Source: Candidatus Latescibacterota bacterium
Lineage (GTDB): Bacteria; Latescibacterota; UBA2968; GCA-2709665
DNA length: 64,000 nucleotides
Direction of reading: 5' to 3'
Assembly (NCBI GenBank): GCA_965205485.1
Contig: OZ242180.1
Location: forward strand, 4,672,001-4,736,000
Part shown: one piece after another, positions 1 to 64,000 of the stretch
Layout: every line of letters begins with the position of its first letter
How positions within the stretch are numbered: the first letter of the stretch is position 1
Made by a program: the position numbers and the translations under genes
Notes under the pieces: generated by a model
Database searches by the model: none
Seen by the model: only the letters and a program-made list of their open reading frames with translations
What the model was told of the DNA's origin: nothing

Positions 1-555
1 ATCGTTCACGAACATCGAAGGGGATACGGCTGGGCCTGCCTCGCGGGCATCGACGCACTCGAAAAACCCGATATAGTGGTGTTCCTGGACGGAGACTACA
101 GTGACTATCCCAACGAAATGACGAACCTGGTGAAGCCGATCGTCGAGGGCTGCGCGGACCTTGTGATCGGCTCGCGCATACTCGGCAACCGGGAGGCCGG
201 CGCGCTGCTTCCCCAGGCCCGCTTCGGAAACTGGCTGGCCACGTGGCTCATCCGCCGCCTGTTTGGCGCCCGTTTCACCGACCTCGGGCCCTTCCGCGCC
301 ATAACGTATCCTGCTCTGTTACGGCTTGAAATGCAGGACAAGACCTTTGGCTGGACCGTGGAAATGCAGGTAAAGGCTGCAAGGATGAAATTGCGGTTCC
401 TCGAAGCGCCGGTAAGTTATCGACGCCGAATCGGCGTCTCCAAGATCACCGGAACCGTCAGCGGCACGATCCGCGCGGGCTGGAAGATTCTCTACACGAT
501 TTTCAGTTACAGACTCCGGAAAACGCCTGAGTCCACGTCGATCGCACCACATTGA
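1..555 (+). CDS. Glycosyltransferase family 2 (DPM1-like), 5'-truncated by window edge
   Basis: Frame 1 open from base 1 (RGYGWACLAG...VVFLDGDYSD DxD motif, DLVIGSR, TDLGPFRAI, GWTVEMQ, YRRRIGVSKI). Confidence 0.88.
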   Translation: MVHEHRRGYGWACLAGIDALEKPDIVVFLDGDYSDYPNEMTNLVKPIVEGCADLVIGSRILGNREAGALLPQARFGNWLATWLIRRLFGARFTDLGPFRAITYPALLRLEMQDKTFGWTVEMQVKAARMKLRFLEAPVSYRRRIGVSKITGTVSGTIRAGWKILYTIFSYRLRKTPESTSIAPH

Positions 556-47730: not shown

Positions 47731-48267
47731 CTAGTTTTCCTCCCCGGCTTCACCTTTCTTCCCGGCGATTTCGTTCAGAACCAGAACCAGGCTCTGAATC
47801 AGGCCGCCCAGGCAGAACACCAGTCCGGTCACCGGGCTTTGAACCGACGAAACCAACTGTCCCAGCAACACTTCCCTCGATGGAAGCTGGGCAAGCGTTT
47901 CCAGTTGATCCTCCCGAAAGACCCGTCCGTCCGCAAATCCGCCCTTGACCCTTGGCAGACCGTTGGTCTCAGATGCGAATTCGTGAAGCAGCCTTACCGC
48001 CGCTACCGGATCGGTTTCGGAACTTGCCAGGCCGGTCGGTCCCTGCAAAACCTCTTCCAGTCCCTGAATCCCGGCGTTTTTTACGGCTATCAGGGCCAGA
48101 CGATTCTTGACGACCCGATAGATGATGTCCTCGTCGCGCAGTCGTTTTCGAAGCCGGGTGACTTCGGGGACATCCAGCCCGGTGAAATCGGCCAGATAAA
48201 ACCCCTGAGACCGGCTCATCAGACGAGTCAATTCCTCGACAGCGCTGACTTTTTCATCCGTTGGCAT
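47731..48267 (-). CDS. rplJ: 50S ribosomal protein L10
   Basis: [20 protein letters not shown]. Confidence 0.96.
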
Positions 48268-48299
48268 CCTGTTCCCTTCCGTTGCGCGGACTGCCGCAG

Positions 48300-48998
48300 T
48301 CAGTTTGTCACGCTGGACCGATCGATCCGTACGCCGGGCCCCATGGTGGTTGCGAGGGTCACGGACCGGACGTACTGTCCCTTGGCGGATGAAGGACGCG
48401 CGCGAAGAATCGTATCGAAAAGCGTTCGGGCATTCTCGACCAGCCGGTCTTCATCGAATGACATCCTGCCCACGGGCGCGTGAACATTACCGTTCCGATC
48501 CGCCCGATACTCCACGCGGCCCGCCTTGGCCTCCGCTACCGCCCGCGTCACGTCCGGCGTAACCGTGCCGCTCTTGGGGTTGGGCATCAACCCTCTCGGG
48601 CCCAGAATCCTTCCAAGGCGTCCGACAACGCTCATCATGTCCGGCGCCGCGATGGCCACGTCGAAGTCCGTCCAGCCGCCGTTGATGCGTTCGGCCAGGT
48701 CGTCGGCTCCCACAACATCCGCTCCCGCCGCTTCGGCTGCCGCCGCCTGTTCGCCCTTGGCGAACACGACCACGCGAATCGTCTTGCCCAGCCCGTGCGG
48801 CAGCATCACCGTACCTCGGATCTGCTGATCGGCCTGACGCGGGTCCACGCCCAGCCGCATCGCCATTTCTACCGTTTGGTCGAATTTCGGCGCCGGCATT
48901 TCCTTCAGCCGGGAAACCGCATCTTCGATTGAATATTGCGCGCGTCGATCGATCCCTGAAAGCGCCGTTCTGTATCGTTTTCCGTTGCGCCCGGCCAT
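48300..48998 (-). CDS. rplA: 50S ribosomal protein L1
   Basis: [26 protein letters not shown]. Confidence 0.98.
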
Positions 48999-49011
48999 AT
49001 TGATGTACCTC

Positions 49012-49437
49012 CTAATCTTCGACCGTTATACCAGCGCTTCGCGCCGTTCCCTCGATCATCCGTACGGCGGTTTCCAGACTGCCCGCATTCAGGTCTTCCA
49101 TCTTCATTTCGGCAATTTCCCGAACCTGGTCCCGCCTGACGCTGCCGACCTTGGTTCGATTGGATTCGGGCGATCCCTTCTCCAGGCCCGCAGCCCGTTT
49201 CAACAACACCGCGGCGGGGGGGCTCTTCGTGATGAAGGAGAAACTGCGGTCCGCAAACACGGTGATGACCGCGGGAACGATCAATCCCTGCTTGTCCTGG
49301 GTCTGAGCGTTAAACGCCTGGCAGAACTCCATGATGTTGACCCCGTGCTGGCCGAGCGCCGGCCCGACCGGGGGCGTGGGAGACGCCTGTCCCGCCGGAA
49401 TCTGAAGTTTAATTGTCGTCATTATCTTCTTTGCCAT
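49012..49437 (-). CDS. rplK: 50S ribosomal protein L11
   Basis: [25 protein letters not shown]. Confidence 0.98.
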
Positions 49438-49441
49438 CGCG

Positions 49442-49981
49442 CTACCCTTCCACGGCCTCTTCAACCTGAAGGACATCCAGTTCCACAGGCGTATTTCTGC
49501 CGAAGATGCTCACCATCACCTTGATTTTTCTCTTCTCCGGGTTCACGACGTCGACCATGCCGATAAACTCGCTGAAGGGTCCGTCTATAACCTTGACCCG
49601 ATCGCCGACCTGGTAGGGAATTTCCTGATCGTCCTGCTCCTGACGCCGGTCCACGTGTCCCAGCACGTGTTCCACTTCTTTTTCGTGAAGCGGCTGGGGA
49701 CGCTTGCCCGGTCCGACAAAGCTCGTTACGCCCGGCACATTGGTTACGAAGTGCATGGTCTCCTTGTCCATTTCCATTTCGACCAGAATGTAGCTGGGCA
49801 GGAACTTCCTGAAGGAGGTCGTCTTCCTCCCGTCTTTCATCTCCACGACCTCTTCGGTGGGAACCACGACCCGGTTGATCCTTTCCGCAACCTCGGTGCC
49901 TTCCTTGGCGCTTTCGAGATAGGAACGCACCTTGTTTTCGTGTCCCGAATAGGTATGCACGACGTACCAGCGCATTGCCAT
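49442..49981 (-). CDS. nusG: Transcription termination/antitermination factor NusG
   Basis: [30 protein letters not shown]. Confidence 0.98.
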
Positions 49982-50015
49982 GGGGCATCACTCACTGTTG
50001 GTTAACCTGCGGCCG

Positions 50016-50201
50016 TCAGCTCATTCCAAACCTGCGAACCAGCGAAAGCACGAAATCTACGGCGAAAATAAACACCGAAAGGACCAGCGAAACCACCAGC
50101 ACAATCGTCGTGGAAGCGATCAGCTCGTCCCGGGTCGGCCAGGTGACCTTGCCCATTTCAAGCTGCACGTCCTTAATGAACTGCGCGACTTTCGCGAACA
50201 T
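50016..50201 (-). CDS. secE: Preprotein translocase SecE
   Basis: EMGKVTWPTRDEL plus one TM helix; position between tRNA-Trp and nusG. Confidence 0.93.
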   Translation of the reverse strand: MFAKVAQFIKDVQLEMGKVTWPTRDELIASTTIVLVVSLVLSVFIFAVDFVLSLVRRFGMS

Positions 50202-50363
50202 CGGGTATACCGCCAGGGAAACGCCCCAACACCGGCAGCGGCCCGGGAATGAGCAGCCGGGTGCCGAATGGACGCGGGTTGATGGGGATTCGCAAAAGAA
50301 ACCCGGGTCCTGTAGGTGCTTGCGGAACTCGGGTGCGGGCCAGGTGGCTGTTTCGGAGGATAA

Positions 50364-50439
50364 TGGCAGGGCAGGCAGGAATCGAACCCGCAACCGCCGG
50401 TTTTGGAGACCGGTGCTCTACCAATTGAGCTACTGCCCT
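50364..50439 (-). tRNA. tRNA-Trp (CCA)
   Basis: AGGGCAGTAGCTCAATTGGTAGAGC...CTCCAAA...GGTTCGATTCC...CCA. Confidence 0.96.
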
Positions 50440-50447
50440 AACCCCAA

Positions 50448-50606
50448 CAGTCCGTTGATAAAGTCGCTCTGCATGCGAGGCCGAGGTATTGTGGCCGAAG
50501 ACAAGGCGCGCGACGGAGTCCCATCCTGCGATCCGGCGAGGGAGCGCAACGCAGTATTCGACCGCAAGGGCCGGCCGCAGCCCGGATGGGCTTTTTCAAC
50601 GGGCTG
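50448..50606 (+). mobile_element. MITE family B (159 bp) between rpmG and tRNA-Trp
   Basis: Same TIRs and body as the outer part of 26824-27131, without the nested insert. Confidence 0.85.
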
Positions 50607-50632
50607 CTTAATTCAGCAGTGAACCCTGAAAT

Positions 50633-50785
50633 TCAGCGAGTCTCCCGGTGCAGGGTATGCTTACGACAGAACCTGCAGTATTTCTTGAACTCGACGCGGT
50701 CCGGGTGCAGACGCCGATTCTTGTTCGTCGTATAGTTACGGCGTGCGCAGTCGGCGCAGGCCAATGTAATCAGATCTCTGGGCAT
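50633..50785 (-). CDS. rpmG: 50S ribosomal protein L33 (Zn-ribbon form); absent from ORF track
   Basis: Hand translation [50 protein letters not shown]. Confidence 0.96.
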
Positions 50786-50807
50786 CGGTGGTGCCGGGAC
50801 GCAATTC

Positions 50808-50883
50808 TGGAGCCCACGACCGGACTTGAACCGGTGACCTCCTCCTTACCAAGGAGGTGCTCTACCGACTGAGCTACATGGGC
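50808..50883 (-). tRNA. tRNA-Thr (GGT)
   Basis: GCCCATGTAGCTCAGTCGGTAGAGC...TTGGTAA...GGTTCAAGTCC...CCA. Confidence 0.96.
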
Positions 50884-50937
50884 CATGATCCTGTCTGGAC
50901 GGCTGAAAAAGGGCCGATCAGACAGCGCGAAAGGTTT

Positions 50938-51014
50938 TGGAGCGGGAAACGGGACTCGAACCCGCGACATTCAGCTTGGAAGGCTGACGCTCTAGCCAAC
51001 TGAGCTATTCCCGC
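50938..51014 (-). tRNA. tRNA-Gly (TCC)
   Basis: GCGGGAATAGCTCAGTTGGCTAGAGC...CTTCCAA...GGTTCGAGTCC...CCA. Confidence 0.96.
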
Positions 51015-51086
51015 AAATCACAGGAAACGGCCCCCATCTGAGCTGGGTACATACCACGGCCATCCCTGAAAGTTTCCAGACTTAGG

Positions 51087-51115
51087 AAGCTATAATATAT
51101 AGGCAAGGATGTCAA
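51087..51115 (-). promoter_or_regulatory. Putative promoter for tRNA-Gly-Thr-rpmG...
   Basis: TTGACA-17 nt-TAGCTT in an AT-rich patch. Confidence 0.5.
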
Positions 51116-51245
51116 GTGTTTTATCAAAAAACAGCGCTCACAAAATCGAGAAAAACATCCACATCTCCCGATGACACACTCAGAAACCGCTCGGCCTCGC
51201 GGCGTGCGGTCGTTTACGTACATACGACAAAACCCCTCCGGTTTA

Positions 51246-51430
51246 GAAGTTGTATTAAAATTCCAGGTGAGTCCCGAGTGCGAGCGAAAATGTATCGGTC
51301 AAGGCGGGCAAATTTGCCTAAGAGAGGCGAGCAAGCGCAACCCCGACCTCTCGAAACGGGTGGATTTGCCCAATGCAGACCGACGCTTTTGCAGCCACAC
51401 GAAGACCGCTGGGGGTTTTAAGACAGCTTC
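51246..51430 (+). mobile_element. MITE family A, long variant (185 bp)
   Basis: TTA|GAAGTTGTATTAAAATT...TTTTAAGACAGCTTC|TTA (3-bp duplication); extra internal hairpin GAGAGGCG...CGACCTCTC. Confidence 0.85.
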
Positions 51431-51456
51431 TTAGGAGGGGCTCGGAGCCCGGGACT

Positions 51457-51542
51457 TGGTGGGGAGGGGCGGATTCGAACCACCGAAGGCGTCAGCCAAC
51501 AGATTTACAGTCTGCCCCCGTTGACCGCTTGGGTACCTCCCC
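51457..51542 (-). tRNA. tRNA-Tyr (GTA)
   Basis: GGGGAGGTACCCAAGCGGTCAACGG...CTGTAAA...long variable arm...GGTTCGAATCC...CCA. Confidence 0.96.
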
Positions 51543-52725: not shown

Positions 52726-53484
52726 TCATCCAGCGCCCCGGGAATCCGCAGCCCGGATCCCGATCAGCCATCCGAATACCCATGCAAACACGACCATCAG
52801 ATAAAACGAGCCGATTGACCCGACGAACATGGCCACCGGCGGTACCGCGCCCAATATCAGATTCACGAGGAGGAGCAGCCCGAAGCAGAGATAGAACCCC
52901 AGACACGCCTGCGTGTACCTCCCCCCGCGAACCGCCCGCCCCAGATCCGAAAGGATCGCTCCCGGATCGAACGAGGCCCAGATCTTGCGCTCGGCCGCGA
53001 ACCGCGCGAAGACGATGGGCAGCAGCCCGTAGAGCATCATCGCGGCGCCGATCGCCAGCAACGTCACCGCGCTCAGCCGGGTGGGGTCGTCACCGGGAGG
53101 AAACAGGCCGAAAACAGCCATTGCGGCGAGCGCCCCAAGACCGACCAGGAACAGATATCCGAGATAGATCACACCAAGGCGGACCCCCACGGCAGCGTAC
53201 TGCAGCCAGTCGCTCCACTCGGGCAGGCGACGGAATTCAAGGCCGTTCAACGCGTCGACGAAGACACGATAGACATATCCCCAGGTAACAACCGTCGGCA
53301 GCACGAAGAAAACAACCGCGACCGGCGCGAGCATTTTGGAGACTTTTCCCAATGCCATAAAGACGGCGAGCAGCAGCGCCAGATTCGGCAGCAGGGACAG
53401 CAACCCGCCCACCAGCACCTTCTGCCGCCAGCGCTCATCCTGCAGAGGCGCGCGCAGCGCGAATGCAAGAAACGGACCGAACAT
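52726..53484 (-). CDS. Membrane protein, DUF4013-like
   Basis: AL..P..DERWRQKVLVGG, GY..RV, LPEWSDW, multiple TM helices. Confidence 0.65.
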   Translation of the reverse strand: MFGPFLAFALRAPLQDERWRQKVLVGGLLSLLPNLALLLAVFMALGKVSKMLAPVAVVFFVLPTVVTWGYVYRVFVDALNGLEFRRLPEWSDWLQYAAVGVRLGVIYLGYLFLVGLGALAAMAVFGLFPPGDDPTRLSAVTLLAIGAAMMLYGLLPIVFARFAAERKIWASFDPGAILSDLGRAVRGGRYTQACLGFYLCFGLLLLVNLILGAVPPVAMFVGSIGSFYLMVVFAWVFGWLIGIRAADSRGAG

Positions 53485-53526
53485 ACGCCACGACGCGAAG
53501 CGAATCGCGTCCCCAATCCTCCTTTA

Positions 53527-53551
53527 GAAGCTGTTTTAAAATTGCAGCTTC
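53527..53551. repeat. Collapsed family-A element (fused TIRs) forming a hairpin after metB
   Basis: TTA|GAAGCTGTTTTAAAATTGCAGCTTC|TTT. Confidence 0.65.
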
Positions 53552-53557
53552 TTTAGT

Positions 53558-54751
53558 TTATAGCGCCTCGAGCGCCCTTTCCACGTCGCCGATCAGGTCT
53601 TCCGCGTCCTCGACCCCCACGGAATAGCGTACGAGTTCGTCGCTGATCCCAATGGCGATCCGGTCCTCGCGTTCCATTTCGTAGTAGGAAATGGTTGACG
53701 GATGAGAGACGATGCTCTCCACCCCGCCCAGGCTTGCGCCAATACAGGGTATTTCCAGGCTATCGAGGAACGCCATGGTTCCGGCCAGATCGGCGTCAAG
53801 ATCGAAACTCACCACGCCTCCGTACCCGTTCATCTGCTCCCGCGCAACCCGGTGGTGCGGGTGGCTCTCCAGACCGGGATAGTAGACCTGGCGCACCCCG
53901 GGTCTCCCTTCCAGAAAACGGGCAAGCGCCAGCGCGGTCTCGTTCTGACGCGCCATTCTCAACGGGAATGTCTTGATCCCCCTGATCAGCAGATACGCGC
54001 AATGGGGGTCGATAACCCCTCCCAGGATACCGCGATAGTCCTTAATGGCCGATACCAGCGGCTCAGGTCCAGCAACGGCGCCCGCGATAAGGTCGTTATG
54101 CCCCCCCAGATACTTGGTCGCGCTGTGAATGACCAGATCGACGCCGAATTCGAGGGGACGCTGGTTGAACGGTGTAGCAAACGTACTGTCAATAACGACT
54201 TTCGCACGGTTCGCCCTGGCGACGGCGACCACCTTTTCGAGATCCATCACATTCAGATGCGGGTTGGTCGGCGACTCCGCAATCACCACTCTCGTATTCT
54301 CCTGCATGGCCGACTCCAGCCTTCCATAGTCGCCTGCGGGAACGAAGGTGGTGGCGATGCCGAACTTCTTCAGCATCTGCTCGCAGAACTGCGCGGTCTT
54401 CCGATAACAGTCGTCTGTGATCACGGCGTGGTACCCCGAGGACAGCATGCCCAACAGGGTCGTCGTCACGGCGCTCATCCCGGACGAAAACAACAGCGCC
54501 GAATCCGCACCCTCGAGTTCGGCCAGTTTTCGTTCGGCAATCTGTTGCGTCGGGTTTCCGTAGCGCCCGTAATCGAGTCGGGCCGAACGCCCCGACACGA
54601 AATCGTCAACCGCCGCGGTGTTCTCGAACACGTAGGTGGACGTCTGCGCGATCGGAACCGTAAGGGAGTGCCCCCAATGCCCTCCGCCTTCCCCCGCGTG
54701 GACGGCACGGGTGGAACTGCAGGCGCCGTCCGACGATGGCTTCTTGTCCAT
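53558..54751 (-). CDS. metB: Cystathionine gamma-synthase, plant-type
   Basis: YGRYGNPT, SSGMSA, DCYRKT, ESPTNP, HSATKYLGGHND (PLP Lys), SLGGVES; ATG after GGAGG. Confidence 0.85.
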   Translation of the reverse strand: MDKKPSSDGACSSTRAVHAGEGGGHWGHSLTVPIAQTSTYVFENTAAVDDFVSGRSARLDYGRYGNPTQQIAERKLAELEGADSALLFSSGMSAVTTTLLGMLSSGYHAVITDDCYRKTAQFCEQMLKKFGIATTFVPAGDYGRLESAMQENTRVVIAESPTNPHLNVMDLEKVVAVARANRAKVVIDSTFATPFNQRPLEFGVDLVIHSATKYLGGHNDLIAGAVAGPEPLVSAIKDYRGILGGVIDPHCAYLLIRGIKTFPLRMARQNETALALARFLEGRPGVRQVYYPGLESHPHHRVAREQMNGYGGVVSFDLDADLAGTMAFLDSLEIPCIGASLGGVESIVSHPSTISYYEMEREDRIAIGISDELVRYSVGVEDAEDLIGDVERALEAL

Positions 54752-54770
54752 CGCATCCTCCGGAAAGGAC

Positions 54771-54799
54771 AAAAAAAAACTGAAGCCAAAAAGCCCCAG
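54771..54799 (-). terminator. Intrinsic terminator in metB leader (riboswitch expression platform)
   Basis: CTGGGGC-TTTTTG-GCTTCAG followed by 9 T. Confidence 0.75.
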
Positions 54800-54837
54800 A
54801 GAACCTGAATACGCAACCAGCTATCGTATGGGTGATC

Positions 54838-54891
54838 AGCTTTTTAGCGATTTCTTTATAGTGGCTGCAATATGCCTCAAATCACCACTAC
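54838..54891 (-). promoter_or_regulatory. SAM-II (SAM_alpha-like) riboswitch aptamer
   Basis: GTAGTGGTGATTTGAGGCATATTGCAGCCACTATAAAGAAATCGCTAAAAAG: P1 GTAGTGG/CCACTAT, pseudoknot TGATTT/AAATCG, TTGCAG and GCTAAA motifs; upstream of a Met gene. Confidence 0.82.
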
Positions 54892-54908
54892 ACTGAATCT
54901 GATCCATC

Positions 54909-54937
54909 AATTTAACCAAATCCGTCGCCGCTGTCAA
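54909..54937 (-). promoter_or_regulatory. Sigma70 promoter for riboswitch-metB
   Basis: TTGACA-17 nt-TAAATT; the -35 overlaps the thrC TGA stop. Confidence 0.72.
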
Positions 54938-56280
54938 CCACCGTTCAGATCGAGCGTCCGAAAGATCCGGTCCCGGACCGGACCGTATTCCGCCGGCAGC
55001 TGCAAGGGCAGGTTCGCATGGTTCGGGTCCACGTCGAATGCCCCGAGTTCGGCCTGGTGGTACCTGATCTTGAAATCGGCGAACTTCAATCCGTGGGCGG
55101 TGGAAATCACCACAACACGCTCGTCTCTCCGGATGACGCCGCGGTCCACCAGTTTGAAGAGCGCGGCAAAGGCCACGCCCGTGTGCGGGCACGAAAACAG
55201 ACCCGTTCGATCCGCCCGCGCCGCCGCGTCCGCCAGTTCCTGATCGGTGGCCTGCTCCACGACGCCACCGATGTTCTTGAGGGTCCTGATCGCCTTTTCG
55301 GTACTGACCGGATCTCCAATCTGGATGGCGCTGGCCAGAGTCGATTGCGCCTCGAGAGGTTCAAACGTGTCGAAATCGTTGAGAAAGCTGCGGTAAAGCG
55401 GATTTGCCCTGGCGCTCTGAGCAACCGCGATTCGGGGCACGCGGTCGACAAGGCCCATCTCCTTCAACTCGCTGAAGCCCTTTCCCAGCGCGCTGACGTT
55501 GCCCAGGTTTCCCCCGGGAATCACGATCCATTGCGGCAGTTCCCAGTCGAACTGCTGCAACAACTCCACGCTGACGGTCTTCTGCCCTTCGACACGAAGT
55601 GAATTCATCGAATTGGCAAGGTAGATGTTCTCCCTGTGGCAAATCTCCTGAACCAGCTTCATGCACCCGTCGAAGTCCGTATCCAGACTCAATACCAGCG
55701 CCCCGTTGGCCATCGGCTGCACGAGCTGGGCCGTAGAAACTTTGTCCCGAGGCAGAAACACGACCGCCTGTATGCCGGCATGCGCGCAGTAGGCCGCCAG
55801 AGCCGCCGAGGTGTCCCCGGTCGAGGCACACGCGGCGGCGGGGATGCGCTGCCCTTCGGAGACCATTTGCCGTACCATCGACACCAGCACCGTCATGCCC
55901 AGATCCTTGAACGAACCGGTGTGACTGTTTCCACATTGCTTGACCCACAGGTCCTCGACTCCGATCTCCCGGCCGAGACGCTCGGCCCAGAACAGATTGC
56001 TCCCCCCTTCGTACATCGACACGACGTTGTCGTCGTCCACAACGGGACACACCATTTCCTTCTTGCCCCATACCGAACTGCCGTACGGCCATTCCGTGCG
56101 CATATACCTCCGATCGAACAGGCGACGCCAGCTATCGGGTGATCGGTTGCGAAGCGCTTCCACGTCGTGGCGCACCTCGAGCAGACCGCCGCACTTCGGA
56201 CACGCGTAGATGATCTGCGTCAGGGGATAACGGCCGCTGCAACCCTTGAAACATCGAAACCAGGCCTTGAACGACGTCAC
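54934..56280 (-). CDS. thrC: Threonine synthase, plant-type
   Basis: [39 protein letters not shown] (PLP Lys), [39 protein letters not shown] start. Confidence 0.93.
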
Positions 56281-56393
56281 GCCAACCCCCTGACCGCATG
56301 AGTCGCCGGCACGCACCGGGAAACAGGTCTTCTCTTTTCTTGACGACCGATAAGCCGCACGCCGCCCGCGTGTGCATTCCCGTCTTCCACGTC

Positions 56394-57221
56394 TCAGATG
56401 ATCTCCAGCGAATTTCCGGGCAACCACCCGCCAATGCCGTTTGGCAACCGCACCAGATACCAGCGTTCTTCGACCCGTTCAATCGTTACCTTCGTACCTT
56501 CATGGATCGTGAATACGAGCAGATAATCGTCGCCCGGCCCGCTTCGTCCCCGCACCTCGTCCGCAAGGACGATCGCTTCCGAAGCGGCGTTCTCGCTATA
56601 GATCCGGTTCGTCAGCAGCGCGACCGAACCGCACAACCCCATGCCCGCCAGCACCAGCAAACCGATCCACAACGAGCGACGAGAAGGCGCAAGAAGCCGG
56701 ATCACGCCGGCGAACGCAGCAAGGAACAGGCAGACGCTTCCGGACACGGCCAGCACATCAGCGCTCAGCAGGCGGTCGACGGACGACAGGATGCGGGTTG
56801 CGAGATTGACGTTGCCATCCGGACTTCTGTCGACCTTCAACGCGTTCACGAATCGAAGATTCGCCAGCACATCTTCATCATCCGGCATCAACCTGAGCGC
56901 CCGCTCATACGCGAGAATGGCCTGCCCCGTTTCCCCTGCCTTGAACCAGGCATTGCCAAGGTTGAAGAAGACGTAGCCGTTCCGCACGCCCCGTGAGACG
57001 ATTTCCTCGTACCGACCCGCCGCCTTTCTGAATTCACCCTGCCCGTAAAGGGCGTTCGCCTCGTTATAGATGCTCGCGCCGGTCCCGTCGCCGCAGACCG
57101 CGCCGGGGAACAGCAGAAATACCAGTACCGCCGGCATGGCCGAGCCTGCCAGAGGAACGGCGGAATCCAGAGCCCGGAAGACCCGCCGGACGCCGCCGGT
57201 CCGTGCGCGCCCGTCCCTCAT
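56394..57221 (-). CDS. batE: BatE-like TPR + SH3b protein
   Basis: [22 protein letters not shown], 2 TM helices, RSGPG...HEGTKV...GWLP. Confidence 0.8.
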
Positions 57222-59041
57222 ATCCTGGCTCCCAGGGCGTCGATAAGCGCCGCCGCGGTGTTGTAGATTTCCTCCCGTTCCTTCTCGGGTATCCGGACCG
57301 AGGCGAAACGTGCGTAGTCGCAACGCAGGAACACATCCTGCACTTGCGAGACGATTGGATCAGGGACGTCCTGTACGCGAAGCGCCCGCGCGGCCGACTC
57401 GCGGGTCACGCCGGCAACCGGCAGGTTCAATCGGTCGGCCAGAAACTGCGCCAGGGCGCGGTCGATTTCGACGTAGAACGCCACGCCGTCTTTTTCCTGG
57501 AGTCGCTTTCGCGCCCGCGTGAGGCGTTTCCTGGCCTCCGGGCCCGAACGCCTTCTTCGGGCATAAGCCACGTCGCCGATGAGCCGGTCCCGGTGGCGCT
57601 TGTATGCAAATATGCCGAAAAAACCGAGGACGGGCACCAGCTGAACGGTCCAGAACCATGTGCTCCTGAAAATCGGCCTGGCGTGATCTTCCAGATGTCC
57701 GAGATCCGGCTTCAGATGACGAATATCCCGGCCGAGCATTTCGATCTCTCTCCGGCTCATCACCGCCCCGGAAGCGGCCTGCCGCCTGCCCTGGTTTACG
57801 TTCACCGAAACCACACGCGAACTCGCCGTCCGATATCGTTGTTTCTCAGGGTCGAAGTAAACCAGCAGAAAAGGACCGATCCTCGCGCTTCCGGCCCGGT
57901 TGGGAATCGCGACGTATTCGAACGTCTTTTCGCCGCCGATTCGTCCATCCGAGTTTCCGGTGCTTACGGTTGAATTCGGGTCGTAGAACTTGAACGCGTC
58001 CCCTTCTGGACGAATGGGTTCGCCCACGGCATTCAGATTACCCGTCCCTCGCACCTTTACCTTCACCGCGATCGGATCTCCCGTCCGGACGTCTGCGGGC
58101 GACGCCTCGACCGATACGTCGAACCGGCCCACCGCGCCGCTGAACCCGGCGGGGGCGCCCGCGGGCAGGGGGGAGACTTCGATCTTCACCTCTTCGGATC
58201 GCGCGCGCACTTCCCGGCCGGCGCCGAATCCGAAGAAATCATCCATATCGAACAGGTTTCTGCGACGCGTGCGCTCCTGAATCTGGCAGACCACTTCGAG
58301 CGCGTCAAGCGACTGTACTCCGGACGCGGTCGGAAACAACGCCATCGTCTTCAACAGCATCACGTCGAACTCGCGGCCGTTATGGACCTCGCGGTCAAAA
58401 CTGGCGCGCTGCGCGTCAAACAGGGTTTCCGACCAGAAACCGGTATAGGCGGGCAGGCGGCCGTAGCTGATATTGCGGAGTGTCCGGCGTGTGTAGAGCT
58501 TATACGTAACGGTCACCTGCTCTCCCACGTATACCTTTTTCTTATCTACCGTGGTTGCAACGAACAGGTCATCCTTCAATTCATCCACATCCGAATCGCC
58601 GGAGTTCTGTCCCGGCGCCGGCACCGGGCGCGTGCGCGGCGCCCCGCCGCGCTTCAGGACATTCACCCGAACCTTCGACGATTCGTGACGCCTACCCTCA
58701 TGCATCACGTGCGCCGGGCCGATCACGAAACTGCCCTCGCGCCTCGCCGTCACGGTGTATACGTATGAGTTGTTTCGCGTGGTTACGACCCGGCCGTTCG
58801 TAATGTTGAGTTCCTGGGTCGTATAGGACGAACGCCCGACAACGTCGAAGGCCTCCGGAACCGGCAGTTCCGGCGAGGGGACGTCTCCGCCGGCCGTTAA
58901 CGTTACCGTCAGCGTGACCTGTTCGCCCACCTCCACGCGCGTACGGTCCACCGACATGTGAAGACGCGGCGAATCGGCCAGCGCGACACCGCGCGAAACC
59001 AGGAGGACGAATAGACAGACACAGGCGGTCGCGCGTGACAT
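57218..59041 (-). CDS. batD: BatD oxygen-tolerance family protein
   Basis: VDRTRVEVGEQV, KKVYVGEQ, FSGAVGRF, GTGNL, YFDPE, DYARFA. Confidence 0.85.
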   Translation of the reverse strand: MSRATACVCLFVLLVSRGVALADSPRLHMSVDRTRVEVGEQVTLTVTLTAGGDVPSPELPVPEAFDVVGRSSYTTQELNITNGRVVTTRNNSYVYTVTARREGSFVIGPAHVMHEGRRHESSKVRVNVLKRGGAPRTRPVPAPGQNSGDSDVDELKDDLFVATTVDKKKVYVGEQVTVTYKLYTRRTLRNISYGRLPAYTGFWSETLFDAQRASFDREVHNGREFDVMLLKTMALFPTASGVQSLDALEVVCQIQERTRRRNLFDMDDFFGFGAGREVRARSEEVKIEVSPLPAGAPAGFSGAVGRFDVSVEASPADVRTGDPIAVKVKVRGTGNLNAVGEPIRPEGDAFKFYDPNSTVSTGNSDGRIGGEKTFEYVAIPNRAGSARIGPFLLVYFDPEKQRYRTASSRVVSVNVNQGRRQAASGAVMSRREIEMLGRDIRHLKPDLGHLEDHARPIFRSTWFWTVQLVPVLGFFGIFAYKRHRDRLIGDVAYARRRRSGPEARKRLTRARKRLQEKDGVAFYVEIDRALAQFLADRLNLPVAGVTRESAARALRVQDVPDPIVSQVQDVFLRCDYARFASVRIPEKEREEIYNTAAALIDALGARI

Positions 59042-59043
59042 TC

Positions 59044-59850
59044 CTACCACTCGTTACCCTTGTACCGTTTGCCGTAAACACGCAAACGGCGGTATTTCTG
59101 GGACTTCGTTTCCCTGTCTTTCATCGCGTCCAGCAGGCGTTCGGCCTCTTCCCGACTCAATGAACCGGCCGGTGACTCCGATAGCGACGACTGTTGACTC
59201 TTCTGCTGCCCGGCGGGGTCTTCCGGCTGCGGGCGCTGTCCATGGTCCGGATTCTCCCGGCCTTTCTGATTCGGATCACGATTGTCGCCGGCGTTTGGAT
59301 CGGGCTGTTCCCGATTCCCTTCGTCGTCCGGCTTATTTTCGTCCGGCTCATTGGCTTCTTCATTCTGCTCCTGATCACCCTCTTTATTTTCACCTTGCTC
59401 CTGTTCGCGCTCCTGATTCTTCTCCTGCTCCCGCATTTTTTCCAGGACCCATTCCAGATTCACCTTGGCGTCCAGGTCGTCCGGCCGCAAAGCCAGCGAC
59501 CGCTTGTAGGCTTCGGCCGCCTGCTGCAGGTTCTGCTGGCGGACGTGGACGTTGCCCACATTGTAATACGCCCTCGCGAGAAACGAGGGGTCCCTGCTCT
59601 TCAGCGCCTGTTCGAACTCCTGCAGGGCATCCTTATAGGCGTTCTTTTTGAAGTAAGCATCGCCCGCATTGAACCGAAGTTGCGGCGCCCCGGGATTCTC
59701 CACCTGGGCTTCGCGGTAGTATTCGAGCGCTTCCTCGAACCTGCCCTCGTGGAACATGCGGTTGCCCAGCCTGTTCTTGTCCGCCGCCGGGTCCAGAAAT
59801 GTGAAGCCGAGAAGCGGAACAACGACGAGTCCGATCAGATATCGATACAC
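59044..59850 (-). CDS. batC: BatC-like TPR protein
   Basis: FNAGDAYFK, YYNVGN, DAKVNLE, Q/E-rich linker, LSREEAERLLDA...EW. Confidence 0.8.
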   Translation of the reverse strand: MYRYLIGLVVVPLLGFTFLDPAADKNRLGNRMFHEGRFEEALEYYREAQVENPGAPQLRFNAGDAYFKKNAYKDALQEFEQALKSRDPSFLARAYYNVGNVHVRQQNLQQAAEAYKRSLALRPDDLDAKVNLEWVLEKMREQEKNQEREQEQGENKEGDQEQNEEANEPDENKPDDEGNREQPDPNAGDNRDPNQKGRENPDHGQRPQPEDPAGQQKSQQSSLSESPAGSLSREEAERLLDAMKDRETKSQKYRRLRVYGKRYKGNEW

Positions 59851-59881
59851 GGTGCACACTCCGGTAAATTCCGGGCCAGGG

Positions 59882-60904
59882 CTACTGAAACCGCCCACGC
59901 CATCTCGTTCGCACCCTCCTGCGGTCCGACAACATCGCCTCGCAGGCAAAACAGGCCACGGCGACGGCGAGCGGCCATTGGAACCGGTGTTTATACTGCG
60001 TGTATTTCCGCGATCCCAGTTCCTTCTTCTCCATCTGTGAGATTTCTTCGTAAACCCTGTCCATGCCCACACCACCCGCCTGTGACCGGATATAGACCCC
60101 GTCGGTCACGCCGGCGACCTGTTGCAGACTCGCTTCGTCCAGGCGCGACTTGACGTAATTCCCCCGGCCGTCCTTCAAGAAATCCGTCCTTCCGTTCTGT
60201 CTTACCGGGATCAACTCTCCGCCAGGCGTCCCCACCCCCACAGCGAATACGCGCACCCCGGCTTCCGCAGCCTCTTTCGCGGCTTCGACCGGATCGTCCG
60301 CGTGGTCTTCGCCGTCCGTGATCAGCACCGTGACCTTGTACTTGCGGTCCTCGCTGCCGAATGCCCGGGTCGACGCGCGAATGGCTTCGGCGATGGCCGT
60401 TCCCTTCACGGGTATTATATCCGTGTCGATCGAGTCCAGAAACAGCTTGGCGGCGCCATAGTCAAGGGTCAGCGGGCAGAGCGTAAAGCTGCGGCCCGCA
60501 AACGCGACCAGACCGATCCTGTCGCCTTCCAGCCTGTCGATAAAGGACTCGATTTCCAGGCGTGCGCGCGTCAGTCTATTCGGACGGATGTCTTCCGCCA
60601 GCATGCTCAGCGACGTATCCAGCGCCACTATGACATCCACGCCCTTACGGTGCAGCAGTTCGAGCCGCATCCCGTATCTCGGCTGCGCCAGCGCCAGAAC
60701 CAGAAAGACGAGTCCGACGACCGTCAACGCCGCCTTTACCCACTGCCGCTTCCAACTCGTGGCCGCCGTCAGCTTCCGCATCAGTTCCGGACTTCCGAAA
60801 CGGGCGAGTGCCCGGCGCCTTTTTCGAAAGGCGCTTGCAAATAACAGAATAGCCGCGGGCACGGTCAACAGGAACCAGAATGCCTGAACGTCGCCGAAAC
60901 GCAT
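59882..60904 (-). CDS. batB: BatB vWA-domain membrane protein
   Basis: ALAQP, MIDAS DTSLSMLAED, DRIGLVAFAG, CPLTLD, ITDGEDH. Confidence 0.88.
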   Translation of the reverse strand: MRFGDVQAFWFLLTVPAAILLFASAFRKRRRALARFGSPELMRKLTAATSWKRQWVKAALTVVGLVFLVLALAQPRYGMRLELLHRKGVDVIVALDTSLSMLAEDIRPNRLTRARLEIESFIDRLEGDRIGLVAFAGRSFTLCPLTLDYGAAKLFLDSIDTDIIPVKGTAIAEAIRASTRAFGSEDRKYKVTVLITDGEDHADDPVEAAKEAAEAGVRVFAVGVGTPGGELIPVRQNGRTDFLKDGRGNYVKSRLDEASLQQVAGVTDGVYIRSQAGGVGMDRVYEEISQMEKKELGSRKYTQYKHRFQWPLAVAVACFACEAMLSDRRRVRTRWRGRFQ

Positions 60905-60905
60905 C

Positions 60906-61892
60906 CTACGGAATCCTCCGGAACCTCGTGTTCGCCAGGATCAGTTCGACGCCCAGCAGGACGAGACCCGGCCAGAGGAATACCGTGAACAACTCGGAGT
61001 AGTCGACGTAGTCGCGTGTCTTGATCTCGGTCTTTTCCATCTCGCCGATTTCGAGGTAGATCTCTGCGAGCTTCTTCTCGCTGGTCGCGCGGAAGTAAAG
61101 GCCGCCCGTGATTTCGGCGACTTCCTTCAGGGTCTCTTCGTCGATTTCAACGCGAACCCGCTGCTGTAGCAGGCCCTGCCCGGTCACGATCACGCCGCTG
61201 CTTCCCGCCCCGATCGTGTAGATTCGAATGCCCACGGCCTGTGCGGCCCTTGCGGCGGTAACCGGGTCCACCTCTCCCCTGTTGTTCACACCGTCCGTCA
61301 ACAGGATGACCACGCGGCTGCTCGCCTGCGACCGGCGCAGGCGGTTTACCGCCGTGACGATGCCGGTCCCGATGGCCGTGCCGTCCCAGGACTCGTCCGC
61401 GAGCCGGACCTCCTCCAAAAAGCTGAGGAAGATCCCGTAGTCGAGTGTGAGCGGACACTGGGTATAGCTCTCGCCCGCAAACACGACGAGGCCGAGCCGG
61501 TCGTTGACCCGGCCCTGCACGAACTGGCTCACGACCTCCTTGCTGACCTGCAACCTGGACTTCCTCTGCTGGTCCAGATCCTTGTAGGCCATGCTGCCGG
61601 AGACGTCAAGGGCGAGTACGATATCGATTCCGCGGGTCAGGATTTCTCTCCCTTCCCGCCCGGAACGCGGACGCGCCAGCGCGATAATAAGGATTACCAA
61701 CGCCAGACAGCGCAGCGCAATCAGGCCGTGGCGCAGCTTGAGTACTGCCGACGGCGGAATCCGGCCGATTAACCCCAGGTCCGGAAAACGAATGCTGCCC
61801 TGCTTCTGCCGTTGCCGGCGTACGTATCGATAGATCAGAAACGGCACCAGAACCAGGGCGAAGAGCCATTCCGGATCCTTGAACTCAATCAT
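60906..61892 (-). CDS. batA: BatA vWA-domain membrane protein
   Basis: ALARP, GIDIVLALDVSGSM, DGTAIG, LLTDGVNNRG, IDEETLKEVA..TGG.YFRA. Confidence 0.9.
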   Translation of the reverse strand: MIEFKDPEWLFALVLVPFLIYRYVRRQRQKQGSIRFPDLGLIGRIPPSAVLKLRHGLIALRCLALVILIIALARPRSGREGREILTRGIDIVLALDVSGSMAYKDLDQQRKSRLQVSKEVVSQFVQGRVNDRLGLVVFAGESYTQCPLTLDYGIFLSFLEEVRLADESWDGTAIGTGIVTAVNRLRRSQASSRVVILLTDGVNNRGEVDPVTAARAAQAVGIRIYTIGAGSSGVIVTGQGLLQQRVRVEIDEETLKEVAEITGGLYFRATSEKKLAEIYLEIGEMEKTEIKTRDYVDYSELFTVFLWPGLVLLGVELILANTRFRRIP

Positions 61893-63010
61893 GCCGTCAC
61901 TACCGCAGGCGCCGCATTCTCCGTCCGGTCGCCACCGGGCCGATGCTGCGCGTCCAGCCGCCGCATGAGATCCAGAACCGCCTCCGCGGCCTTCGTTGCA
62001 ACCTCATCTTGCGGTCGAAGCTTCGCGAACTTTACCAGATCCGCCACCGACAACAGCCCGTCGAGCGCCGATAGCTCCGCTTTCCCAACCGCCACCCGTT
62101 CGAGGTCATGCACGAGTTCGTGCGTGGTACACTCCATGGCGTCAACCCGGAACCGATCCTCCAGGTACCTGCGCATCACCTCGGAAAGCAGGCTGTAATA
62201 GCGCTTGTACTCGCCGTTTTCCAGGAGTCGCATCCGCAGAATCTTCTCGACTTCGTCGGGCCAGTGAATCGGCGGCGGCGTTTCGATCACGGGCTTGCTC
62301 CGTCGCCGGCGCCAGAGCCAGATTGCCGCGGCCACGAGACCGGCCAGGGCGGCAACAACGAACCAGAACCACGGGGGTATTCTGGCCTCGATGTCGACCG
62401 GAGGCTTCACATCCCGGATATCCGACATTCCCGCCGGCATGACGCCGCGTACCACAACCGGAATCGGCTCGGAAGTGATTAGCCCGGAGTCGCCGCCGGC
62501 CGTCCGCACCCGGAGTATCAGGGACGGAACTTCGATCACCCCCAAACGGTACACGGCAAGTTCGAAGGCCTGTGTCTCCTCCACACCGCCTCCGGGCGCC
62601 TCCCGAACCACCGGCGGCACCTGGCGACGCACCTCGAACGGTGCGAGGAAATCCTCGTTCCGTACGAGCGCGACGGCGTCCCCCGACTCGCGCCTGATCC
62701 GTAAGTTCAGAAGAACGGGATCGCCCAGCGTCAGGGTATCCCGGTTTACCGTGGCTTCGAATAGAACTTCGGCTTCCGTGCCGGATAGTGGCGCCGCCAG
62801 ACTCCAGGCGCCTATCCACGCCGATATCAGAAGAAGTTGTTTTAAAATTACCAGTGAGTTCCCGAGCGCGAGCGAAAAAGTGGCGGTCAAGGCGGGAAAA
62901 TCCGCCCATATTTGTCTATACGGGTGGGTTTGACCAACGCCGACCGGCGCTTTTGCAGCCGCGCGAAGACCGCTGGGAATTTTAAGACAGCTTCTCAAAA
63001 TCCGGGCCAT
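61889..63010 (-). CDS. Bat-operon exported/TM protein (BatD/DUF4381-like) with in-frame MITE in its signal peptide
   Basis: DTLTLGDP, IRDVKP, TM helix, RRYLEDRF..AMECTT.E, ADLVKFAK. Confidence 0.75.
   Translation of the reverse strand: MARILRSCLKIPSGLRAAAKAPVGVGQTHPYRQIWADFPALTATFSLALGNSLVILKQLLLISAWIGAWSLAAPLSGTEAEVLFEATVNRDTLTLGDPVLLNLRIRRESGDAVALVRNEDFLAPFEVRRQVPPVVREAPGGGVEETQAFELAVYRLGVIEVPSLILRVRTAGGDSGLITSEPIPVVVRGVMPAGMSDIRDVKPPVDIEARIPPWFWFVVAALAGLVAAAIWLWRRRRSKPVIETPPPIHWPDEVEKILRMRLLENGEYKRYYSLLSEVMRRYLEDRFRVDAMECTTHELVHDLERVAVGKAELSALDGLLSVADLVKFAKLRPQDEVATKAAEAVLDLMRRLDAQHRPGGDRTENAAPAVVTA
62833..62994 (+). mobile_element. MITE family A (162 bp) inside a coding sequence
   Basis: Near-identical to 3091-3252; read in frame on the minus strand as RSCLKIPSG...ILKQLL. 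Confidence 0.9.
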
Positions 63011-63026
63011 ATTCCGTCGGCCACCT

Positions 63027-64000
63027 TCATCGCATCCGCACTGCCCCGCCAAGCGGTGATTTAATGGTATCCGGGCGGGCTGCGTCCGGTCGAACGGAAA
63101 CGAGCTCGAGCTTCAGTTTCGTCAGGACCTTGTGATCGATTCGGGCGACCTGGGTACGGCGGTGGCCCCGTGCGTACACCTCGCCGTCCCTTTCGCCGAT
63201 CGTCAGTTTCTGCACGGTCGCGCCACCGCGCCAGGCGGTGACCTCCAATGCCGGGCGATCCAATCCGAATGCCTCTGGCGATTTCAGCTCCTCCGCCACG
63301 AATTCTTCGGCTTCGAGCAGTTCAATGGTGCGAAAGAGATGTTTTATACGATGTTCCAGAACGATATGAAGCTTTGGCTGCAGCACCTCCCACGTGTTCC
63401 CGTTCCCATCCCTGACACACTCCACGACGCGGTCCCGGTACGCCAGCTTCAACCTGTCGACTCCTGAGGCATCGAACCCGAAGATACGCTTGAATCTCAG
63501 GTCCGAGGATGTCTTTCTGATATCCGCGACAAAGGTCGAGTCGACCAGGAAAACCATGGGACTGCCCGAAAATGCCGCGAAAAACGGCGGAAACCGGCGC
63601 CCTTCCTTCCTGCGTCCGATCATTATGGTCTTTTTCCGCTCACGGTCTCCATCGTATACCGATACCGTAAGCGTCGGTTTCTCCAGTCCAAATTGACCGC
63701 GCTCCCGGGATTCCTCCTCGACAACTCGCGTGAATTCGGCGGTTCGCAGCCTGTTGATCAGCTTTCGGACCTCGTCCTCGTCGGTGCGGTCGTTGACCGG
63801 AAACGTCAGGCGCCATTCGTCCGCAAGTTTCTCGACGACGACACGGGCATCGCTGCGGGCTATTTCGACCTTCCGGAGGGTTTCCGGATTGAAGTCCGCG
63901 ACCCGCTTGTCACGCAGTTGAAACAGCCCCTTTTCCAATCTCAACCTGAACGGGGCGCCAACCGCGAGTATTCCGGGATGACCGGACCACCTGACGTAAC
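63027..64000 (-). CDS. DUF4340-like exported protein, 5'-truncated by window edge
   Basis: Frame open to window end; repeated LR.K.(V/I)..F / W....P / FGL..P units. Confidence 0.7.
   Translation of the reverse strand, partial: YVRWSGHPGILAVGAPFRLRLEKGLFQLRDKRVADFNPETLRKVEIARSDARVVVEKLADEWRLTFPVNDRTDEDEVRKLINRLRTAEFTRVVEEESRERGQFGLEKPTLTVSVYDGDRERKKTIMIGRRKEGRRFPPFFAAFSGSPMVFLVDSTFVADIRKTSSDLRFKRIFGFDASGVDRLKLAYRDRVVECVRDGNGNTWEVLQPKLHIVLEHRIKHLFRTIELLEAEEFVAEELKSPEAFGLDRPALEVTAWRGGATVQKLTIGERDGEVYARGHRRTQVARIDHKVLTKLKLELVSVRPDAARPDTIKSPLGGAVRMR

Follow-up and report, generated by a model that had tools for sequence, protein, structure and literature searches.

A SAM-II riboswitch as a probable transcriptional OFF switch ahead of a plant-type cystathionine gamma-synthase gene in Candidatus Latescibacterota

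Background

The SAM-II riboswitch class is described, in the available text of PMC1273637, with a promoter just before helix P1, with intrinsic terminators in many members and with an OFF logic. Members in Bacteroides, Coxiella and Bordetella are already included there, so the rarity outside the alpha-proteobacteria that was implied in the original prediction for the locus studied here does not hold. The same prediction regarded SAM-II as acting mostly by hiding the ribosome binding site (RBS), which also disagrees with the record: terminators are the usual partner of the class in the accessible parts of PMC2258182 and PMC1273637, and among the matches listed to a SAM-II pattern (at least 120 matches, of which the 80 listed were analysed and grouped by record title) a terminator-like hairpin is found behind 50 of 63 proteobacterial ones. 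The RBS-hiding view stems from the metX model RNA, according to what could be seen of PMC10907184, and in each of the original 120 tandem SAM-II/SAM-V cases a terminator follows SAM-II, as given in the available part of PMC9481103. Mechanistic work on SAM-II, in the parts of the literature available, has nearly all been done on the translational metX RNA, and transcriptional control has been left as a prediction. For example in S. meliloti metZ, with the sRNA RZ (PMC9373788), there is a predicted SAM-dependent terminator like the one described below; a terminated RNA of ~100 nt has been detected and rises in high-SAM medium, and in the available text the SAM-dependent termination is a prediction backed by RNA levels and not by a switch mutant.

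Herein we analyse a SAM-II element in a genome of Candidatus Latescibacterota, located in a stretch of 64,000 nucleotides that is called the window throughout. As far as the class is described in the available text of PMC1273637 and PMC2258182, the element resembles it in having P1 and a pseudoknot P2, a promoter only a few bases ahead of P1, an intrinsic terminator between P2 and the gene, a methionine-pathway target and OFF logic. It differs from the class in its phylum, where matches to the family occur in 57 of 121 genomes and in one class only (0 of 24 sampled genomes outside it); in its target, which is a plant-type cystathionine gamma-synthase (CGS) and not metY, metA, metX or metZ; and in its antiterminator, which uses GCUAAAAAG, whereas a strong long complement is present in 4 of the 63 proteobacterial matches listed. 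With the complement window shifted into L3, the figure is 14 of 50 proteobacterial matches among those listed. As modelled, the element works like the terminator-coupled majority of SAM-II, and the points of difference are the phylum, the target gene and the long GCUAAAAAG complement; our literature search, of partial coverage, found no paper on SAM-II in Latescibacterota. A SAM-II aptamer with a terminator is thus the described norm, and the window is notable for its unusually clear wiring.

The aptamer and its leader

In the Rfam scan there is a single match to RF00521 (SAM_alpha), at 54824-54898 on the minus strand (43.9 bits against a gathering cut-off of 36, E 1.3e-06), which is the sole non-tRNA Rfam family within the 64-kb window and the only RF00521 match in the whole genome. 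The SAM-II-like pseudoknot first proposed at 54838-54891 is therefore recognised by the family model above its gathering cut-off. The long-loop model RF01726 was ruled out, with 25.5 bits against a cut-off of 44. The features of the leader, all on the minus strand, are as follows.

54909..54937, minus strand: sigma70-type promoter TTGACA-17-TAAATT, 10/12 consensus match
54838..54891, minus strand: predicted SAM-II aptamer, H-type pseudoknot (RF00521, 43.9 bits)
54891-54885 with 54864-54858, minus strand: aptamer P1
54881-54879, minus strand: UUU within aptamer L1
54876-54867 with 54848-54838, minus strand: 5' and 3' strands of aptamer P2
54857-54849, minus strand: A-rich aptamer L3
54838..54848, minus strand: switching strand GCUAAAAAGCU, either P2 3' strand or antiterminator 5' strand
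54803..54833, minus strand: spacer hairpin, core AUACG 54829-54825 with CGUAU 54813-54809
54785..54795, minus strand: anti-aptamer strand GGCUUUUUGGC, in the loop and the top of both terminator arms
54771..54799, minus strand: intrinsic terminator, 8-pair hairpin 54799-54780 and U9 54779-54771
54749..54770, minus strand: Shine-Dalgarno sequence (SD) GGAGGA 54761-54756, start codon ATG 54751-54749; weak local hairpin possible over the SD

The SAM-contacting residues of SAM-II, as named in the available text of PMC3303485, have counterparts in the window by motif mapping: U10/U11/U12 at U54881-U54879, U21/G22 at U54869/G54868, and U44/A45/A46 at U54846/A54845/A54844, the last three being U and A residues of the switching strand that match U44-A46 of the solved structure. 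In an alignment of 27 loci picked across genera, all of them vary little or not at all. Standard pairs make up 91% of P1, P2 and the terminator together in this alignment, and 8 of the 21 pairs show two-sided changes; the paired fraction is 88% in P1 (two-sided changes in 2/7 pairs), 97.5% in P2a (2/3 pairs) and 100% in P2b, which is invariant, and the terminator has two-sided changes in 4/7 pairs. By its sequence the element is a member of the SAM-II class, with SAM as its predicted ligand. The metX SAM-II of PDB 2QWY has the same fold and binding-site residues (available text of PMC10907184 and PMC3303485), but there the SD lies within P2 and the control is translational, while in the window P2 holds no SD, its 3' strand reading GCUAAAAAGCU, and the SD and ATG are found ~80 nt downstream of the aptamer. 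The translational metX type was therefore ruled out for the window, the SD at 54761-54756 being outside the P2 3' strand.

The promoter-like site is the better of 2 found in 53000-64000; since shuffles yield 2.5 sites, the scan is weak by itself. A TTG[AC]C[AT]-16..18-TAnnnT pattern is however present ahead of 63 of the 68 homologous aptamers surveyed below, in line with the promoter that had been predicted at 54909-54937. Its -35 box overlaps the stop codon TGA of the upstream gene thrC, and from its position transcription would start near 54900-54903. The terminator hairpin, with the sequence CUGGGGC-UUUUU-GGCUUCAG, folds at -9.8 kcal/mol (z -4.3), and here too the predicted hairpin with U9, far upstream of the RBS, is upheld. 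Between aptamer and terminator stands the spacer hairpin, for which, in the genus (13 distinct sequences), 98% of cells are paired and all changes are one-sided; it is present in both computed states and draws the two antiterminator strands together.

Pairing between aptamer and terminator

The aptamer strand GCUAAAAAGC (54848-54839) is complementary to GCUUUUUGGC (54794-54785) over 10 pairs, or 11 with U54838-G54795. For the 12-nt aptamer strand against the terminator hairpin, with the U tract excluded, the duplex energy is -14.9 kcal/mol. When the same strand was set against the 192 terminator-like hairpins given by a scan of the genome, the median was -4.35 (sd 1.8) and the next best -9.7, so that the riboswitch hairpin is the only one below -10; dinucleotide shuffles of the platform equalled the duplex in 1 of 5000 cases. 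The complement is not due to chance, and the antiterminator of 10-11 bp over the loop and both stem arms stands as it was first read. Across the 27 loci the anti-helix is paired at 88.8%, against 39-68% in slid registers.

Covariation of the antiterminator in relatives, on the other hand, did not come out. Two-sided changes are found in 0 of 11 pairs and one-sided changes in 4 over the 27 loci, the anti-helix is no better than the shuffle control (229/500), and the 13 distinct sequences of the genus, too alike to inform, hold no two-sided change; a single unaligned case is L025, with U-A replacing C-G. The test has little power because the aptamer side is nearly invariant, and an invariant ligand-binding strand would give just such an absence of covariation. 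It is thus conservation and the chance test, and not covariation, that speak for the pairing.

Survey of related loci

RF00521 is over its cut-off in 57 of 61 related genomes, and all 68 matches in these genomes, 2 of them below the cut-off, were surveyed; the 68 loci are kin and not independent, 35 coming from two genera. The gene after the aptamer is CGS-like in 55 loci, a threonine dehydrogenase homolog in 10 and neither in 3. A terminator-like hairpin lies within 125 nt of the aptamer in 67/68 loci, behind spacers varying from about 6 to 86 nt, and the aptamer-terminator duplex reaches -10 or better in 53/68. In 59 loci, belonging to 12 of 15 genera, the complement is within the best 2% of 191 control hairpins; the other 9 loci comprise all of g8 (0/4), g9 (0/2) and g14 (0/1) and two, namely half, of g5. 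For three G+C-richer aptamer variants, 7-19 of the 191 controls reach -10, and such loci are therefore uninformative. The terminator scans were ad hoc, and they missed the hairpin in L142, U-ending first terminators (L025) and some second ones (L144, L154).

Besides the CGS-like genes, ten loci (L005, L006, L010, L122, L123, L145, L149, L153, L155 and L156) have SAM-II and a terminator before an L-threonine 3-dehydrogenase homolog, which in L010 is over the PRK05396 cut-off. Low SAM may there switch on the breakdown of threonine to glycine, a one-carbon source. The window's genome has no close homolog of threonine dehydrogenase (best 33%), and our literature search, of partial coverage, found no paper on SAM control of this enzyme. 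L157 holds a SAM-II copy below the threshold in which one P1 pair is broken; a tdh-like start behind it enters a cysteine-synthase-like frame, by translation reading, and this is possibly a rearranged or decayed locus. Moreover, two RF00521 matches, both over the cut-off, are 165 nt apart in G090:C175:4777-5018, and two others, both just under it, are ~340 nt apart in G115:C159:132-548; these are likely tandem SAM-II pairs.

Folding and the proposed switch

Folding was computed with ViennaRNA on constrained secondary structures, in which the energies of pseudoknot and ligand are outside the model and the SAM-bound state is mimicked by constraints. P1 is the minimum-energy fold once transcribed. 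With P1 fixed, the probability that the terminator base is closed is 0.03 for a free 3' strand and 0.94 for a blocked one; the terminator probability in the 14 loci of the genus is 0.00-0.39 (free) and 0.89-0.98 (blocked). Without constraint it is 0.06-0.34 for the different start sites, since L1 can misfold with L3/P2 and so leave the hairpin free. A SAM-independent fold with closed terminator lies just ~2 kcal/mol above the antiterminator state, and together with this misfold it makes basal termination likely. In turn, holding the strand apart costs ~6 kcal/mol relative to the antiterminator state, a deficit for P2 and SAM to repay.

When the hairpin is complete and SAM is not mimicked, equilibrium favours the terminator in 45 of the 53 loci outside the genus. 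Equilibrium folding was thus set aside as a general test, since clean switching is seen only in the window's genus and in 8 of the 53 other loci, and outside the genus the model needs kinetics. When the last 4 nt of the hairpin are omitted, to represent bases not yet released by the polymerase, the anti-helix prevails at the first terminator in 59/68 loci, from which we infer kinetic control; the switch decision, as modelled, is probably kinetic.

The mechanism that we propose is as follows. RNA polymerase would start near 54903, or enter by read-through from thrC, which is possible because no good terminator lies between thrC and the leader, and P1 would form first. At low SAM the weak P2 would stay open, and GCUAAAAAGCU would capture the terminator loop and upper arms on their exit from the polymerase, while the hairpin is still open at its base, so that transcription continues into the gene; the complement would be placed in loop and upper arms for the very purpose of being caught ahead of stem-base closure. 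At high SAM the ligand would bind during the synthesis of the ~45 nt spacer, the strand GCUAAAAAGCU would be locked in the P2 triple helix, the hairpin would close, and termination in U9 would release an RNA of ~130 nt. A second alternative helix, in which the aptamer AAAAAGCUGA would pair with the 3' arm and the U tract, was judged by eye and dropped, its bases being still inside the polymerase at the time of decision.

The sequence holds an aptamer, a promoter-like site, a terminator and a mutually exclusive alternative helix of 10-11 bp, all of them conserved. With the folding contrast and the complement in 59/68 loci, the mechanism originally put forward, in which SAM locks the 3' strand and thereby turns transcription off, gains support, and we hold it highly probable on these models that the SAM-II riboswitch is a transcriptional OFF switch of a methionine-synthesis gene through SAM-dependent termination. 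The ~130-nt leader is also a good test RNA for pseudoknot-gated termination, because its antiterminator is single, clean, conserved and separable.

The terminator might instead be largely constitutive, as a fixed attenuator or as the transcript end of thrC, with SAM acting via RNA stability or via a distant effect on translation, as is reported for S. meliloti metA. There the SAM-II aptamer has a validated terminator for which, in the available text of PMC9373788, no antiterminator is predictable and a tie to SAM could not be made; the equilibrium preference for the terminator without SAM at the loci outside the genus agrees with this reading, and the leader's hairpin, being the sole strong minus-strand terminator in 53000-64000, could serve thrC. 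Nevertheless we regard it as unlikely: it gives no reason for an 11-nt aptamer complement in the loop, which is found in 1 of the 192 hairpins of the genome and recurs in the relatives at the count given above, it has to place a fixed terminator downstream of the CGS-like gene's promoter, where read-through is the only route to the gene, and it sits poorly with a P2 that has no SD.

Another reading would add a translational layer to the switch, in that the read-through RNA refolds and the hairpin 54770-54755 also hides the SD. A local hairpin over GGAGGA is in fact predicted, and in the long transcript the SD is unpaired with a probability of just 0.5-0.8; but the hairpin is weak, it is unlinked to the aptamer and has no bases in common with aptamer or anti-helix, and within the genus the stretch from the U tract to the SD, including the hairpin's upstream arm, is variable. 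Dual control of this kind is very unlikely.

Serial terminators in relatives

The relatives offer a possible design of one aptamer with two terminators. By a two-hairpin motif written after seeing the data, two serial hairpins with aptamer-complementary loops and U-rich tails are found in 27/68 loci (g6 20, g10 4, g2 2, g4 1). By energy, 24 loci have two duplexes of -8 or better, a level that, for the strands in question, 1-4 of 191 controls reach. The loci are listed below.

g6: L011, L016, L018, L020-L024, L026, L027, L029, L031, L126, L128-L130, L134, L136-L138
g10: L012, L025, L124, L154
g2: L144, L146
g4: L152

Their serial hairpins sit 5-75 nt behind the aptamer, and the second complements are often imperfect. 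The single terminator of the window stands approximately at the place of the second one, behind a GCGUA linker that is found in g6 as well. In a folding snapshot taken at the second hairpin, pairing of this hairpin with the aptamer strand has a probability of 0.4-1.0, and a hand-over is therefore energetically allowed.

Tentatively, and as a possibility that we rate below even chances, one strand could serve two terminators in a kinetic relay, so that a single aptamer would provide two SAM checkpoints and respond more steeply; the window would be a reduced form with one checkpoint. The aptamer strand would catch the first terminator loop ahead of the synthesis of the hairpin base; once the polymerase is past the first terminator, the first hairpin would refold and release the strand, which would then either bind SAM or disarm the second terminator. 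In the window the spacer hairpin would stand in the first terminator's place. If the relay is true, a switch at the bacterial O-phosphohomoserine branch point would be a counterpart of the plant MTO1 peptide. Among described systems, the tandem SAM-II/SAM-V and SAM-II/SAM-II arrangements (available text of PMC9481103) also have SAM-II followed by an intrinsic terminator, but they use two aptamers, whereas one aptamer is combined with one terminator in the window and with two in the sister genera. The c-di-GMP riboswitch Bc1, as presented in the available part of PMC11218506, has one aptamer and two serial terminators, like the relatives and unlike the window; its second terminator does not respond to the ligand, while in the Latescibacterota relatives both loops complement the aptamer strand. 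No paper on a relay of one aptamer and two terminators was found in our literature search of partial coverage. As a separate observation, Gemmatimonadota account for 12 of the 80 SAM-II pattern matches listed (L165, L173, L185, L224 and others), and several of these loci have a terminator with a loop or 3' arm complementary to the aptamer strand.

Neighbouring genes and the O-phosphohomoserine branch point

The leader alone separates two adjoining genes (53558-56292, minus strand), as follows.

53558..54751, minus strand: CGS-like PLP enzyme, plant-type cystathionine gamma-synthase, 397 aa, the regulated gene
54934..56292, minus strand: thrC, plant-type threonine synthase, 452 aa (TIGR00260, above cut-off)

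The best solved relative of the CGS-like protein is tobacco CGS (1i41/1qgn, 412 bits), followed by methionine gamma-lyase with 315, and it is over no NCBIfam cut-off. In bit scores, 412 vs at most 315, its sequence is nearer to plant CGS than to bacterial MetB/MetZ/MGL. Its six best relatives are from Ca. Latescibacterota with 70-93% identity, which bears out the non-alphaproteobacterial lineage supposed at first. Similarly ThrC has its best solved relative in Arabidopsis TS1 (1e5x/2c2b) with 555 bits, the best bacterial one reaching 187. Of the CGS loci, 28 have a long flank on the upstream side, the window counted among them, and in 26 of these thrC is the gene directly before. In the window's genome, which is 97% complete, thrB is present while neither metX nor metA has a model match, and HomK was not found; in the related genomes metX has a match in 2/61 and metA in 4/61, with neither in 55/61. 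There is no full-length metH over the cut-off in the genome, separate domain matches only. As a side observation, methionine synthase-like domains binding cobalamin, pterin and homocysteine occur as separate ORFs in G000:C1:452600-459100, and further homocysteine-methyltransferase-like matches are plentiful elsewhere in the genome (19 matches).

In plants CGS and threonine synthase share O-phosphohomoserine, and SAM activates the latter (TS1) and represses the former (CGS1) via the MTO1 nascent peptide (available text of PMC8137854 and PMC2694679). The window resembles this branch point, so far as these sources describe it, in the closest solved relatives of both enzymes and in having thrB with no metA or metX found; by analogy, repression of the CGS arm by SAM would be a further likeness, predicted in the window. 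The means differ, as the repression works by ribosome arrest in plant CGS1 and by an RNA aptamer predicted to act at transcription in the window. By this analogy we infer an O-phosphohomoserine branch point as in plants, with the riboswitch on the methionine arm. Since the CGS-like gene, to judge from its sequence, most likely draws O-phosphohomoserine into the methionine branch, SAM would shut the methionine arm and leave the upstream thrC unaffected. A bacterium would thus have SAM control at a threonine/methionine branch point of plant-like type, exerted on the methionine arm.

Homologous loci from other phyla were also compared: 80 CGS-homolog loci were searched with a SAM-II regular expression, which matched in 5, all Latescibacterota, and 20 of them were scanned with Rfam. 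In 3 of these 20, all in other phyla, a SAM-I riboswitch is located ahead of the CGS-like gene, which therefore supports SAM repression of this gene. The three loci are L043, L045 and L048 (Myxococcales, Anaerolineales and Caldilineaceae), with SAM-I ~150-360 nt before the CGS-like homolog. That the window's element has a ligand other than SAM by variant specificity, or is a relic, is extremely improbable, for although its P2 region is 3 bases shorter than the Rfam consensus and 10/68 loci precede threonine dehydrogenase, no listed SAM_alpha target, all binding-site residues have their (nearly) invariant counterparts over the 27 loci, the main target is an enzyme of the methionine pathway with homologs that elsewhere lie behind SAM-I, and SAM-I itself was not found in the window's genome.

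Elsewhere in the window, at 47731-51542 on the minus strand, a cluster of four tRNAs is followed by an rpmG-like ORF at 50633-50785. In many bacteria tuf lies between tRNA and rpmG; here there is no space for it between the tRNA at 50811 and rpmG. The same region also holds secE-, nusG-, rplK-, rplA- and rplJ-like ORFs, named from reading of their translations.
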